From NCBI GenBank assembly GCA_020848745.1, contig JADLHM010000141.1, positions 38,599-102,598 of the forward strand: 64,000 nucleotides of DNA, written 5' to 3'. Below the pieces are notes generated by a model. That model saw nothing but the letters and a program-made list of their open reading frames with translations. It did no database searches and was not told the DNA's origin. How positions within the stretch are numbered: position 1 is the stretch's first letter; every line of letters begins with the position of its first letter. The DNA is from Deltaproteobacteria bacterium (lineage in GTDB: Bacteria; Desulfobacterota; Binatia; UTPRO1). Below, in pieces: positions 4,684 through 45,887 of the stretch. The position numbers were made by a program, and so were the translations under genes.

Positions 4684-4762
4684 CGCGATCTCGTCGGGTT
4701 GCCGCCCCCGGACCCCGATGGTAAGGTCCGCGGCTTCGCACGAAACGCCGAGGAGTCACCAA

Positions 4763-14380: not shown

Positions 14381-14407
14381 TTGACCGGGGGGGGGGGGGG
14401 GTAGGCT
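14381..14407 (+). promoter_or_regulatory. candidate sigma70-type promoter with homopolymeric G15 spacer (possible phase-variable promoter of the DGR target gene)
   Basis: TTGACC (14381-86), G x15 (14387-14401), TAGGCT (14402-07); ~67 nt before ATG 14474; AGGAGG RBS at 14461-66. Confidence 0.4.
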
Positions 14408-14473: not shown

Positions 14474-15424
14474 ATGCGCGTTCCAGTTCGAAACCTTGCG
14501 CTGGCGGCGCTCGCCGTCGTCGCACTTTCCGCCAGCGCTGCGCGGGCCGCGACCCCAGCCCAGAAGTGCCAGGCCGGTAAGAACAAGGCCGCCGGGAAGT
14601 ACGCCGCCTGCCGCCACGGCGCCGAGGCCAAGCTCGCCACCACCGGCGACGGCGCGGCCTATGCAACGGCCATCGGCAAGTGCACGACCAAATATGGAGC
14701 CGCCTGGCAGAAGCTCGAAGCCAACGCCGGCGGCGCCTGCCCGAGCAACGGCGACGAGACCGCGATCGGCACCGTCGTCGACGGCTGCACGACCAACATC
14801 GCGACCGCCGTCGGGGGCGGGGTGCTGACCGATTGTCCGGCGGACCTGGCGGCGTGTCTCGCGGCTCCGCAAGGGCAGCGCCTGAAGACGGAGCAGTACG
14901 CCTGCTACGACGCCGGGGGCGTGGTGATCCCCTGTGCCGGCACCGGGCAGGACGGCGAGCTCCAGAAGGGGTTGGCGCGGAGCTATACCGACAACGGCGA
15001 CGGTACGATCACCGACGACCGGACGGGCCTCATGTGGGAGAAGCTGTCGGACGACGGCAGTCTCCACGACAAGGACAATTACTACACGTGGACGAACGCC
15101 TTCGCGGTGAAGATCGCGGGCTTGAACGCGGGTGGAGGCTTCGCCGGCCATACGGACTGGCGGTTGCCCAACGTCAACGAGCTCCAGAGCCTCGTGAGCT
15201 ATGGGGCGGTGAACCCGTCCGTAAGCGCTGCGTTCAATACGGCGTGCGCCCCGGCGTGTACCGTGACGACCTGTAGTTGTACCCAGTCGAACTTCTATTG
15301 GTCGGCTACGACGTATCAGGACAGTCCGTCGCTCGCGTGGCTCGTGTTCTTCTTCGACGGCGACGTGTACGCGGACGGTAAGCCCGACAACTACTATGTT
15401 CGCGGAGTGCGTGGCGGCTCGTGA
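14474..15424 (+). CDS. DGR target (variable) protein: secreted Cys-rich protein with C-terminal DUF1566/Lcl-C-type domain
   Basis: Sec signal MRVPVRNLALAALAVVALSASAARA; C-terminal motifs GLMWEK, WRLPNVNEL, YWSATTY, YYVRGVRGGS typical of DUF1566; last 143 nt form the VR. Confidence 0.9.
   Translation: MRVPVRNLALAALAVVALSASAARAATPAQKCQAGKNKAAGKYAACRHGAEAKLATTGDGAAYATAIGKCTTKYGAAWQKLEANAGGACPSNGDETAIGTVVDGCTTNIATAVGGGVLTDCPADLAACLAAPQGQRLKTEQYACYDAGGVVIPCAGTGQDGELQKGLARSYTDNGDGTITDDRTGLMWEKLSDDGSLHDKDNYYTWTNAFAVKIAGLNAGGGFAGHTDWRLPNVNELQSLVSYGAVNPSVSAAFNTACAPACTVTTCSCTQSNFYWSATTYQDSPSLAWLVFFFDGDVYADGKPDNYYVRGVRGGS
15282..15424 (+). repeat. DGR variable region (VR) at 3' end of target gene
   Basis: 143 nt matching the TR at 16063-16205 with 21 mismatches, all at TR adenines; the last ~30 nt (tatgttcgcggagtgcgtggcgg) are identical to the TR. 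Confidence 0.85.
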
Positions 15425-15471
15425 TCGATCATTGGATCATTTGAAGGTTTGACCATTTGATTTCGGGGGGT

Positions 15472-15493
15472 CTGGGGGGCGGGAGCCCCCCAG
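15472..15493 (+). promoter_or_regulatory. GC-rich stem-loop 48 nt downstream of VR (DGR target-recognition hairpin candidate)
   Basis: ctggggggc-ggga-gccccccag: perfect 9-bp stem with 4-nt loop. Confidence 0.55.
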
Positions 15494-15508
15494 GGAAAGC
15501 GGCTAGCA

Positions 15509-15907
15509 ATGGCGCAGACCGAGCACCTGCCGATCTACAAAGCGGCATACGACTTCTGTCTCTGGTGCGAGCAAGTCGTCCAAGGCTTCTCGCGCTACCA
15601 CAAGTACGCGCTCGGCGCCGACCTCCGCGAGGGCGCGCGCCGTGTCGTGAAGCTCGTCGTGCGGGCCAACGCACGGCGCGACAAGCGGCCGGTGTTGCTC
15701 GAGGTGCGCGAGGAAGTCGAGCAGCTGAAAGTGCTCTTGCGGCTCGGGCACGACGTCAAGGCATTTCCCAATTTCAACAGCTTCGAGCACGCCATCACCA
15801 CCGTCACCGGCATCGCCAAGCAGAACGAAGGTTGGTTGAAGAGTCAGGGCCATGGCCAGAATCGGCGGGCAATGCCGGCAGGGCTCGCCGCGCCGAGCGC
15901 GCCATGA
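15509..15907 (+). CDS. avd: DGR accessory variability determinant (Avd-like four-helix-bundle protein)
   Basis: 132-aa protein (…LPIYKAAYDFCLWCEQVVQGFSRYHKYALGADLREGARRVVKLVVRANARRDK…) resembling four-helix-bundle/23S-rRNA-IVS-family proteins; positioned between VR and TR. Confidence 0.8.
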   Translation: MAQTEHLPIYKAAYDFCLWCEQVVQGFSRYHKYALGADLREGARRVVKLVVRANARRDKRPVLLEVREEVEQLKVLLRLGHDVKAFPNFNSFEHAITTVTGIAKQNEGWLKSQGHGQNRRAMPAGLAAPSAP

Positions 15908-16062
15908 TCACGAGGTCCCGCTCCCGCCCGTCGCCGCGTCCTGGTGCCGGGCGAACGCCAAGGCCCTGTAGCGGGGCGGCGGCAGAAGGGCGTCTTCCCG
16001 CGCTGCCGCACGGCCAGGCGTCCGGGTCCGGCGGCAGCAGGCCGGGAACAAGCGGCGCGGGC

Positions 16063-16205
16063 GCCAGTCGAACAACTATTGGTCGGCTACGACGTATCAG
16101 AACAATCCGTCGAACGCGTGGAACGTGAACTTCAACGACGGCAACGTGAACGCGAACAATAAGACCAACAACAACTATGTTCGCGGAGTGCGTGGCGGAT
16201 CGTGA
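16063..16205 (+). repeat. DGR template repeat (TR)
   Basis: Encodes QSNNYWSATTYQNNPSNAWNVNFNDGNVNANNKTNNNYVRGVRGGS; AAC/AAT-rich; every VR/TR difference falls on an A here. Confidence 0.85.
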
Positions 16206-16214
16206 TCGGCCCTG

Positions 16215-16255
16215 CGGGGAGGGAGCACGGGCTCCCTCCCCGGTTCGTTTTTCTG
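16215..16255 (+). terminator. stem-loop plus T-tract immediately after TR (intrinsic terminator-like / TR-RNA 3' structure)
   Basis: cggggagggagc-acgg-gctccctccccg (12-bp perfect stem) followed by gttcgtttttctg. Confidence 0.5.
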
Positions 16256-16311
16256 TGCGCGTATCACACGACGATCAGGCGGTGGCTCGGCGCTGGCCGT
16301 GACGGTGTTGC

Positions 16312-17964
16312 GTGGACGATCTCTACGGCTTCGCGAATCTGTACCGCTGCTACCGGCGCTGTCGCCGGCACAAGCGCGGCACCGTCAATGCGCTCGCGTT
16401 CGAGATCGACGCCGAGGCGAAGCTGCTCGATTTGCAGCGGGCGCTCCGCGACCACAGCTACGTGCCCGGACGTTCGGTCTGCTTCGTCACCGAGGGGCCG
16501 AAGCCGCGCGAGGTTTTCGCGGCGGACTTCCGCGATCGCATCGTCCACCACCTGCTGGTCGAGCGGCAGGAGCGCGTCTTCGAGCCGCGCTTCATCCACG
16601 ACTCGTACGCCTGCCGTCCGGGCAAGGGCACGCTCGCCGCGAGCGATCGGCTCATGCGCTTCCTCCGCCAGCTCACCGCCAACGGCCGGCGGCCCGGCTG
16701 GGCCCTGAAGCTCGACGTCGCGAGCTTCTTCGCGTCGATCCACAAGGCGACGCTCTACGAGCTGATCGCGGCGCGCGTCCGCGACCCGGAGCTCCGCTGG
16801 CTGACGTGGACGATCCTCTTCCACGACCCGACGCGCGATTATCGCTTCCGCTCGCTCGGCGGGCACGTGCCCGGTCCGGAGACTCCCGGCTACCCGGTGC
16901 CGCCGGCGAAGAGCCTCTTTGGCGCCGGCAACGCCCGCGGCCTCCCGATCGGGAACCTCACGAGCCAGTTCTGGGCCAACGTCTATCTCGATGCGCTCGA
17001 TCAGTTCGTGAAGCGCGAGCTCCGCTGCCGCCGGTACGTCCGCTACGTCGACGACCTCGTGCTGCTGGCCGACGATCCGGAGCGGCTCCGGGGCTGGCAT
17101 GCGAAGATCGCGGGGTTCCTTGCCGAACGCTTGCACCTCGCCCTGCGGGCCGAGGCGGCGGAGCCGCGGCCGGTGGGCGCGGGCGTCATGTTCGTCGGGT
17201 GGCGGACCTGGTGGAGCCACCGCGTGCCGCGGCGCCAGACGCTCGGTAACCTCGCGCGCCGGCTCGCCGGCTTCGAGCGTGTCCTTTGTGAGCCGGCGCT
17301 GGCGGGAGCGGCGCGCGCCATCGACCTCGAGCGGCGGGTGCGTCCCGCGGCGCCGCGCGCGGGCCGGCCGGTACGCAGGGTGTCGTCGCAGTTGCAGGCG
17401 ACGCTTGCGGCCTACGGCGGGCACCTCCGTCACGGCGCCGCCTACGGTCTCTGGCTCCGGATGTGGGAGCGCCATGCGGCCTGGCTGCCGCTAGTGTGTC
17501 GCCGCACGGGGTGGCGCGCCGGCGTACGGTGGTCCGCCGCGCCGCGTGCGGTCCCGGCGCGCGGTTCACGCGCGCGACCGCTCGCCCGCGCCTATCGCCA
17601 TCTGCTGCGGGCGGCGGGCGACGACGTGCTCCTCTTTCTCCAGGTCGGGCGCTACGTCGAGCTCTACGGGCCGCAGCGCGTGCGCGGGGAACGCCTCCTC
17701 GGGCTCCGGGCCGTGCACCTGCCGCGCGCGGGGTTCGGGCTCGCGGCGGGGTTCCCGCGGAGCTGTCTCCGCGCGTTCGTCCGCCGCGCGCTCGCTTCAG
17801 GCTGGTCGGTGATCCTGGCGGTGGAGCGGCGTTCCGACCGTGCCCCGTGGTCCTTCGAACGTACGCCGGCCAGGCTCTGGGTGTCGCCATACGCGCGGTC
17901 GGCCTCAGTGGGCCAAGCGCAGCCGGCGGTGTGGGTCAGCCTCGAGGTGGCCACGGCTTCTTGA
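16312..17964 (+). CDS. DGR reverse transcriptase
   Basis: GTG start; RT motifs including LPIGNLTSQFWANVYL (IGxxxSQ, DGR-diagnostic) and RYVRYVDDLVLLADD (YxDD box); 550 aa with an Arg-rich C-terminal ~200 aa of uncertain validity. Confidence 0.9.
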   Translation: MDDLYGFANLYRCYRRCRRHKRGTVNALAFEIDAEAKLLDLQRALRDHSYVPGRSVCFVTEGPKPREVFAADFRDRIVHHLLVERQERVFEPRFIHDSYACRPGKGTLAASDRLMRFLRQLTANGRRPGWALKLDVASFFASIHKATLYELIAARVRDPELRWLTWTILFHDPTRDYRFRSLGGHVPGPETPGYPVPPAKSLFGAGNARGLPIGNLTSQFWANVYLDALDQFVKRELRCRRYVRYVDDLVLLADDPERLRGWHAKIAGFLAERLHLALRAEAAEPRPVGAGVMFVGWRTWWSHRVPRRQTLGNLARRLAGFERVLCEPALAGAARAIDLERRVRPAAPRAGRPVRRVSSQLQATLAAYGGHLRHGAAYGLWLRMWERHAAWLPLVCRRTGWRAGVRWSAAPRAVPARGSRARPLARAYRHLLRAAGDDVLLFLQVGRYVELYGPQRVRGERLLGLRAVHLPRAGFGLAAGFPRSCLRAFVRRALASGWSVILAVERRSDRAPWSFERTPARLWVSPYARSASVGQAQPAVWVSLEVATAS

Positions 17965-45566: not shown

Positions 45567-45850
45567 GCAGCCGCTCCTCGCTCCGACGCCATGACCGCGC
45601 GCGCCGCCTCGCTGTTCCGACGCCGCGGCGACGCCGTTCGCGTCGCCGCCGCGGTCCTTCGTCCGGCGCTATTTACGACGTGCGCGCCGGCGGTACCAGT
45701 ACCGCGAGGCGCGCGCGCGGAGCCGCGGTTCACCTTGACACTCCAGGGGTGCTTCGTTACGCTCCGCGGCCTTCATACGACTGTTTGGGTATCGCACGAC
45801 TGGCGTTTGCGTGGAGCACCACGAGGAAGTGCGACCTTCAGGAGCCGAAC

Positions 45851-45887
45851 GCCTGGGCCTCTGACTAGGAGGGGTCCAGGCTTTTTT
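45851..45887 (+). terminator. intrinsic terminator-like hairpin inside the 5' leader of serC (candidate attenuator)
   Basis: gcctgggcc…ggtccaggc stem (one mismatch) followed by TTTTTT, 39 nt upstream of the serC ATG; TTGACA at 45735 with TACGCT 17 nt downstream. Confidence 0.35.

Follow-up and report, generated by a model that had tools for sequence, protein, structure and literature searches.

A 64,000-nucleotide stretch of DNA from a deltaproteobacterium (contig JADLHM010000141.1, positions 38,599 to 102,598; hereafter the window, 64 kb, 71% GC) carries an intact diversity-generating retroelement (DGR), in the order target gene with variable repeat (VR), avd, template repeat (TR), reverse transcriptase (RT) gene. 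Two hairpins accompany the repeats, one downstream of VR and one directly downstream of TR. They are read here, with about even confidence, as two structured cis elements known from DGRs, of which the VR-side hairpin would act on DNA and the TR-side hairpin on RNA.

15472..15493, no strand assigned: VR-side inverted repeat, 9-bp perfect stem (8 G-C, 1 T-A), loop GGGA
16215..16242, + strand: TR-side stem-loop of 12 perfect pairs with loop ACGG, which starts 7 nt past TR
16243..16255, + strand: U-rich tail GTTCGTTTTTCTG, which together with the stem fits the intrinsic-terminator pattern

The hairpin downstream of VR is conserved and associated with the target

Both hairpins had been noticed in a preliminary description of the window, made from the letters alone, and the geometry given there proved exact. 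On the VR side, the arms CTGGGGGGC (15472-15480) and GCCCCCCAG (15485-15493) enclose the loop GGGA (15481-15484); the hairpin starts 47-48 nt past the TGA stop codon of the target gene (48 nt in that description), which is 44 nt past the end of VR, and a GGGGGG run (15465-15470) lies upstream of it. On the TR side, the arms are CGGGGAGGGAGC (16215-16226) and GCTCCCTCCCCG (16231-16242), and 56 nt separate the end of the tail at 16255 from the GTG of the RT at 16312 (about 55 nt in the description). The proposal that both folds would be more stable than shuffled controls held only in part: in tight windows, z of the RNA fold was -2.9 for the VR-side and -3.7 for the TR-side hairpin (0/200 shuffles equally stable in either case), whereas the wider windows originally suggested, 15440-15510 and 16205-16270, yielded just -0.9 and -2.3. 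Folded as DNA, z was -3.8/-4.0 on the VR side and -5.4 on the TR side.

The significance of the VR-side hairpin lies in its position and conservation, not in its energy. About 170 related loci (labeled in the manner of L001, with WIN for the window locus) were gathered via the RT, for which more than 3000 homologues were found. In all six loci where the RT shares at least 56% identity and VR is detectable, a GC hairpin was present 33-62 nt after VR. Five of these loci have stems of 9-15 bp and one has a stem of 6 bp, all differing in sequence; L163 is a further example. In relatives, the G-rich arm is always the 5′ one, and GGGGTCTGGGGG, which precedes the stem, recurs in loci with RTs just 40-57% identical.

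The gap between VR and the hairpin is filled by tandem 8-nt repeats, a point absent from the preliminary description:

15428..15467, + strand: tandem 8-nt units ATCATTGG / ATCATTTG / AAGGTTTG / ACCATTTG / ATTTCGGG
15467..15479, + strand: GGGGTCTGGGGGG motif, in which a G-run and a T lead into the G-rich 5′ arm of the VR-side hairpin

The repeat unit is NNCATTTG, of which four or five copies lie between the stop codon and the GC hairpin. The stretch has 36% GC compared with 71% for the genome, is unique in the window, and is absent after TR. The motif GGGGTCTGGGGGG has one match on the + strand of the window and a near-match, GGGGTCCGGGGG, on the - strand near 4716; it also occurs in L083, L082, L163, and L158, with variants in L100, L087, and L004. 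Many relatives, chiefly ones with a MutS_I-like C-terminus of the RT, have the module, that is, tandem NNCATTTG units, then GGGGTCTGGGGG, then the stem, behind the stop codon of the target. Within the clade whose RT aligns through this C-terminal region, the 60 nt past the stop codon contained 30 occurrences of ATTTG, with 1.9 expected. A hairpin of at least 7 bp lay no more than 70 nt from the repeat module in 41% of relatives versus 3.2% of control windows (Mann-Whitney p = 1e-4), a 13-fold enrichment. In L006, the 8-nt repeats and the same small hairpin lie behind both targets, only one of which precedes avd; thus, the element goes with the target and not with avd. Where VR is internal to the gene (L087 and L004), the repeats appear, from reading the printed sequences, to be tied to the stop codon and not to VR. 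The VR-side hairpin is, in sum, real, conserved, and target-associated; of the two halves of the composite flank, it is the more variable. Literature searches returned nothing on such 8-nt repeats, nor on terminator-like stems after TR. A G-quadruplex at 15465-15496 was also considered but rejected because the four required G-tracts, judged by reading the sequences, are not kept in relatives.

VR and TR are nearly identical at their 3′ ends

14474..15424, + strand: DGR target gene, 316 aa, from the list of open reading frames (ORFs)
15283..15427, + strand: VR, 145 nt, 86% identical to TR
15509..15907, + strand: avd (accessory variability determinant), 132 aa, PF22296 bAvd with E = 8.5e-14, above the Pfam cut-off
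15908..16063, + strand: avd-TR leader with motifs conserved in relatives and a variable hairpin, read by eye
16064..16208, + strand: TR, 75-97% identical to the TRs of related loci
16312..17964, + strand: DGR RT, 550 aa, start GTG at 16312, YVDD motif, PF00078 with E = 5e-12

VR lies in the C-terminus of the target, which is a C-type-lectin-like domain of the Lcl_C/DUF1566 family (Pfam PF07603, E = 2.7e-28). The 145-nt repeats differ at 21 positions, every one of them a TR adenine; with Lcl_C target, bAvd, and RT all present, the DGR is therefore considered complete and to have been active. The avd product also matched NF033474 DivGenRetAVD (E = 2.1e-14), but at 53.7 bits, which is under the curated NCBIfam cut-off of 80; the MutS_I-like region at the C-terminus of the RT is a weak match (PF01624, E = 3e-4).

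The stop codon of the target occupies 15422-15424. Homology between VR and TR ends 3 nt beyond it (TGATCG), in agreement with the boundary given in the preliminary description. In the final ∼35 nt of VR, the region resembling an IMH (initiation of mutagenic homing), a single base differs from TR (C15418 versus A16199), so that the distinction between IMH and IMH* is essentially absent at this DGR, a case anticipated by Wu et al. Because the 3′ ends are near-identical, the difference between donor and recipient must be read from sequence just downstream, and the downstream flank is the obvious candidate for the discriminator.

Searched against Rfam at gathering score, the window contained a ZTP riboswitch as its sole match, and no family matched either hairpin; permissive E-value matches in 15300-16500 (CRISPR-DR29, M23, and blv_FSE) were regarded as noise. 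The riboswitch (45786-45881; RF01750, 56.5 bits) has a terminator-like platform of 12 pairs and a T6 run.

The avd-TR leader contains the motif GGGAACAAGCGG at 16034-16045. Motifs that this leader has in common with L161, L163, L086, L001, and L125 are CGAACGCCAAGG, GCA(C/G)AAGGGC, and CCGGGTC-hairpin-CCGGGAACAAGCGG, and AACAAGCG, which is similar to a leader motif, occurs in the 5′ coding region of the RT. They may be further RNA elements of the DGR.

The hairpin downstream of TR and its origin by insertion

No perfect stem in the window is longer than that on the TR side, which is also the sole one of at least 12 bp (0.33 expected per window, about 5e-4 in the 100-nt interval). A comparison with relatives shows how it came to lie between TR and RT.

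16202..16214, + strand: GTGATCGGCCCTG, what is left of the ancestral RT start (M-I-G-P); in compact relatives, that start overlaps the TR end
16256..16311, + strand: rest of the spacer, absent from L161 and L167

In compact relatives, the junction reads GTG ATC GGC CCT GAC CTC TAT. The ancestral RT start is the GTG within TCGTGATCG (GTG ATC GGC CCT GAC, that is, M-I-G-P-D), as seen directly in L083 and L001, and the N-terminus is MIGP or VIGP in 12 of 30 homologues, with close variants in three more. The window has a 97-nt insert after GTGATCGGCCCTG, and the RT restarts at GTG 16312 in a different frame. The GTG of GTGATCGGCCCTG opens an ORF of 168 codons (16202-16708), out of frame with the RT and extending across its 5′ region, and the 12-bp hairpin starts 13 nt past this GTG. 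As these comparisons show, a lineage-specific insertion holding the TR-side hairpin has separated the RT from its ancestral start, and the segment 16256-16311 is specific to the lineage of the window.

The same hairpin is present in L161, the RT of which is 77% identical, and in L167, with one G-C pair changed to G-U and with the loops AAGT and AGGG instead of ACGG. Both loci also keep the T-run (TCGTTTTTGCG in L161, TCGTTTTTTCG in L167), and their RT starts with an ATG 6-7 nt past it. As this leaves no room for a promoter, the hairpin cannot be a complete terminator, and the RT must come from read-through transcripts. The preliminary description had reasoned that the RT is either read through or separately initiated, which was sound. 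Other hairpins at the TR/RT junction were found in L125 and L169 (15 bp), L163 (16 bp with G-U pairs), L003, L081, and L170; between the sister hairpins of L125 and L169, a G-C pair is exchanged for A-U on both sides. Where the spacer between TR and RT measures at least 45 nt, a stem of 11-16 bp starts 6-17 nt past TR in 11 of 19 loci. Among these are Bacteroidales-type DGRs (RT 33-35% identical; 42% for L159), in which covarying stems of 11-14 bp start 7-16 nt past TR, often with U-rich tails, and are followed by a conserved motif and then the RT. The G-U pairs in several spacer stems point to RNA rather than DNA as the level at which pairing matters. It is concluded from these comparisons that the TR-side hairpin, at the 5′ end of the spacer, is in all probability under selection as an RNA structure.

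Compact relatives share another hairpin, within RT codons 11-19 (WRQ/xCRR; alignment A3, columns 17-25/32-40). There, 68% of cells were paired versus 63.6% in shuffles (0/500 reached the observed value), the covariation score was 0.172 versus 0.135 (3/500), slid registers were 27-55% paired, and two pairs swap G-C for C-G. This hairpin, ∼27-50 nt past TR, may be the spacer stem-loop of the compact elements. In the usual register, neither the window nor L161 has it; a shifted version is present in the window:

16353..16368, + strand: 6-bp hairpin CCGGCG CTGT CGCCGG in RT codons 14-19

That the TR-side hairpin replaced the one inside the RT codons found little support, as L081 and L125 have both.

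Many homologous loci are decayed DGRs (L167, 1-540; L171, 2640-3000; L163, L164, L165, and L166), with the RT cut to 135-200 aa. In L167 and L171, where avd and leader are missing, the target gene continues directly into the TR-side flank; the upstream repeat of L167 is a hybrid of VR and TR and looks like the product of a VR-TR recombination that deleted avd.

Other observations in the window

About 70 nt upstream of the target gene start, TTGACC, a run of 15 G (14387-14401), and TAGGCT follow each other (14381-14407). This looks like a promoter with a homopolymeric spacer between -35 and -10 and could be phase-variable by slippage; it was not flagged by the promoter scan. Between 57400 and 60700, three tandem copies of a unit of ∼1.13-1.15 kb, 66-74% identical, are probably three paralogous genes.

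Comparison with known DGR elements

The target hairpin of DGRs has a GC-rich stem of 7-10 bp and a 4-nt loop, GRNA on the sense strand, and lies 4-34 bp past VR; the stem acts by structure and the loop by sequence, and the distance to VR is described as "quite flexible" (Guo et al, 2011, PMC3240598). Both in Bordetella and in E. coli, retrohoming is impaired when the inverted repeat is deleted, and a model in which the lagging strand is opened has been proposed. Like this element in phage BPP-1 and other phage DGRs, the hairpin of the window belongs to a bona fide DGR target and is located downstream of VR, its 9-bp stem with 8 G-C pairs is within the known range, its loop GGGA fits GRNA, perhaps by chance, and the stem sequence varies among relatives while pairing is kept. 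In contrast to BPP-1, where the hairpin starts directly after the stop codon, that of the window starts 47 nt after it, and the gap holds conserved tandem 8-nt repeats, which are not described for BPP-1. The relatives also differ from the element of Guo et al in having an invariably G-rich 5′ arm accompanied by GGGGTCTGGGGG.

On the TR side, a likeness not considered in the preliminary description is that to the stem-loop in the spacer of DGR RNA. In BPP-1, this structure (Sp3-33) is an 11-bp stem with a tetraloop with which each of the five Avd protomers makes contact, and predictions place such stem-loops, with stems of about 9-11 bp and tetraloops that are commonly UNCG or GNRA, in 207 of 278 DGRs with Avd (Handa et al, bioRxiv 10.1101/2023.10.23.563531). 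The stem of the window likewise lies directly 3′ of TR (7 nt, compared with 3 nt in BPP-1), has 12 bp (11 bp in BPP-1), is capped by a tetraloop, and is followed by a pyrimidine-rich stretch; Avd is encoded in the DGR, and the pairing appears to be kept at the level of RNA. Unlike the BPP-1 element, that of the window is a lineage-specific insertion missing from most relatives.

Taken together, these likenesses suggest the following mechanism. The VR-side inverted repeat would be a target-site hairpin or cruciform by which VR, rather than TR, is designated to receive mutagenized cDNA; by analogy with the Bordetella phage element, it would keep the 3′ flank of the target open, so that cDNA can pair with and replace VR. 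The TR-side stem-loop would, as an RNA structure, occupy the 5′ end of the spacer in the avd-TR-RT transcript, being equivalent in position and geometry to the Avd-binding stem-loop of the Bordetella phage and presumably bound by Avd. Judged by this analogy, an architectural role in Avd docking is its most likely function.

Several observations weigh against this interpretation. Perfect stems of at least 9 bp are not rare in the window (14 observed versus 8.9 ± 3.2 in dinucleotide shuffles), which makes the VR-side stem unremarkable in isolation. Its distance of 44 nt from VR exceeds the 4-34 bp of known target hairpins, and the loops of relatives (GTGC, TCCT, GCA, TTT, CGATAA, and TGT; 3-7 nt) are not GRNA, so that the fit of GGGA may be due to chance. 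About half of the VR-side hairpins in relatives have T-runs behind them (L082, L100, L103, and L134) and could be terminators. The 8-nt repeats stand without a hairpin of at least 6 bp in L005, L007, L009, and L093, making the hairpin the less constant part of the module, and high-confidence inverted repeats were found in just 34% of DGRs (Wu et al). The earlier assignment of the VR-side hairpin to DGR target hairpins is thus supported by the stem and by the occurrence in relatives; the spacing is outside the known range, and a GRNA loop is not conserved in the clade. On the TR side, TR abuts or overlaps the RT start, without any spacer, in 45 of the 73 loci with a similar TR, and the 60 nt after TR were not unusually structured across 82 related loci (median z = +0.5). 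Spacer hairpins are non-homologous between lineages, which fits repeated neutral insertion too. The stem of the window is perfect, lacking the flipped-out or bulged bases that Avd contacts in BPP-1 and that insert between its protomers, and the loops ACGG, AAGT, and AGGG are neither UNCG nor GNRA and vary among relatives. Finally, in contrast to BPP-1, neither a primer strand paired to the 3′ end of TR nor a stop duplex formed with sequence upstream of TR was identified with a significant partner for the TR-side spacer, and the U5 run found there looks terminator-like. When the last 38 nt of TR were compared with the downstream 150-250 nt by RNAduplex, no pairing beyond that of shuffles and no consistent partner emerged across 16 loci. 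The candidate pairings of CGATCA (16272-16277) with TGATCG (16203-16208) and of 16010-16018 with 16294-16302 were not above shuffles and are absent from L161. A stop duplex suggested by the full-length fold (16003-16021 with 16291-16308) was not adopted because its 3′ partner is missing in L161 and L167.

Alternative explanations

The TR-side hairpin and its U-run might mainly be a terminator or attenuator that ends most avd-TR transcripts and keeps RT low, with no role in the ribonucleoprotein of reverse transcription; of the alternatives, this one survives best, although it is considered somewhat unlikely. The stem followed by GTTCGTTTTT was the top match of a terminator scan (12 pairs, 10 G-C, 5 T in 8), and that the host uses such signals is shown by the platform of the ZTP riboswitch (45851-45881), the only comparable site in the first 60 kb scanned, which likewise combines a 12-pair GC-rich stem with a U-run in the manner of a Rho-independent terminator. 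TTTTT is rare in the window (8 occurrences on the + strand), but L161 and L167 retain it behind the stem. A constant stem with varying loops is expected of a terminator, and most relatives work without any such hairpin. However, the U-rich tract, despite the fact that it begins within 0-2 nt of the stem, is interrupted, as is apparent in GTTCGTTTTT, and contains only 2 U in its first 5 nt; this offset and interrupted run (GUUCGUUUUU) differs from the UUUUUU directly after the riboswitch stem. Unlike a Rho-independent terminator at the end of a transcription unit, the element lies inside an operon, with the RT following. The RT starts of L161 and L167, 6-7 nt past the T-run, imply that termination is not efficient if RT is made, and the sister lineages L125, L169, L163, and L003 have a junction hairpin without a T-run. 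Moreover, priming in the Bordetella phage DGR requires the RNA that lies downstream of the spacer stem-loop. The original proposal, a terminator or a structured 3′ end of the TR RNA, is therefore retained insofar as the element is terminator-like and probably a selected RNA structure; as the RT starts of L161 and L167 show, it is not the 3′ end of the functional unit. Both activities could coexist. The conserved U-run probably stops a fraction of transcripts before the RT, which would lower RT relative to Avd and TR RNA; such partial termination is a plausible second function of the hairpin because the U-run is conserved in a T-poor genome.

That the VR-side hairpin is a transcription terminator, or a stem stabilizing the 3′ end of the target mRNA, and unrelated to retrohoming, is regarded as unlikely. 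It is located between target and avd, T-runs follow the hairpin in L082 (GGATTTTTTATT), L103 (AATTTTTGG), L134 (TCGCGTTTTTTT), and L100, 9-bp GC stems are not rare, as noted above, and the same possibility was weighed by Wu et al. In the window, the sequence following the hairpin is GGAAAGCGGC, and neither inspection nor the terminator scan revealed a T-run on either strand, for which reason the hairpin is not a canonical terminator; L002, L003, L163, L127, and L158 lack one as well. The hairpin is always behind the conserved 8-nt module, and its G-rich 5′ arm and GGGGTCTGGGGG are kept across loci with RTs 40-57% identical, which is unlike a generic terminator.

A different view of the recipient site, to which little confidence is attached, would make the VR-side hairpin only a variable, auxiliary part. 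In the clade with a MutS_I-like RT, the site would be set not by a difference between IMH and IMH* but by a composite DNA element past the target stop codon, consisting of 3-5 tandem NNCATTTG units, GGGGTCTGGGGG, and a hairpin with a G-rich 5′ arm. This element would be read by a protein of the DGR, possibly by the MutS-I-like domain of the RT.

Least probable is that one or both hairpins are neutral, as chance palindromes in GC-rich DNA or remnants of palindromes inserted at the TR/RT junction: the low z in wider windows, the ∼9 stems of at least 9 bp expected by chance per 64 kb, the non-homologous hairpins and missing spacers of relatives, and the visible decay of many homologous loci (RT truncated, avd deleted) would fit it, but not the compensatory change between L125 and L169, the wobble-only change among WIN, L161, and L167 beside loop turnover, the rarity of 12-bp stems, or the enrichment of VR-side hairpins after the repeat module. 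Nor is the hairpin sequence a dispersed repeat or mobile palindrome, the TR-side hairpin being single-copy in the window at up to 3 mismatches and absent from viral contigs.

Implications for DGR target recognition

Both hairpins belong to known kinds of DGR cis element, and the locus is a fairly ordinary new example of them; modest novelty lies only in the unreported 8-nt repeat module and in the insertional origin of the TR-side stem-loop. How the cDNA of a DGR finds and replaces VR is an unsolved problem, and beyond the Bordetella phage system, the RNA elements directing cDNA synthesis are known from predictions alone. The locus adds a chromosomal, GC-rich case in which the repeats have near-identical 3′ ends and target recognition must rely on the downstream flank. 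That some lineages can acquire a TR-side stem-loop by insertion, and that most lack one, bears on the generality of the "Avd-binding stem-loop". Current models are not overturned by these findings; rather, the flank of repeats plus hairpin offers concrete elements that can be mutated.

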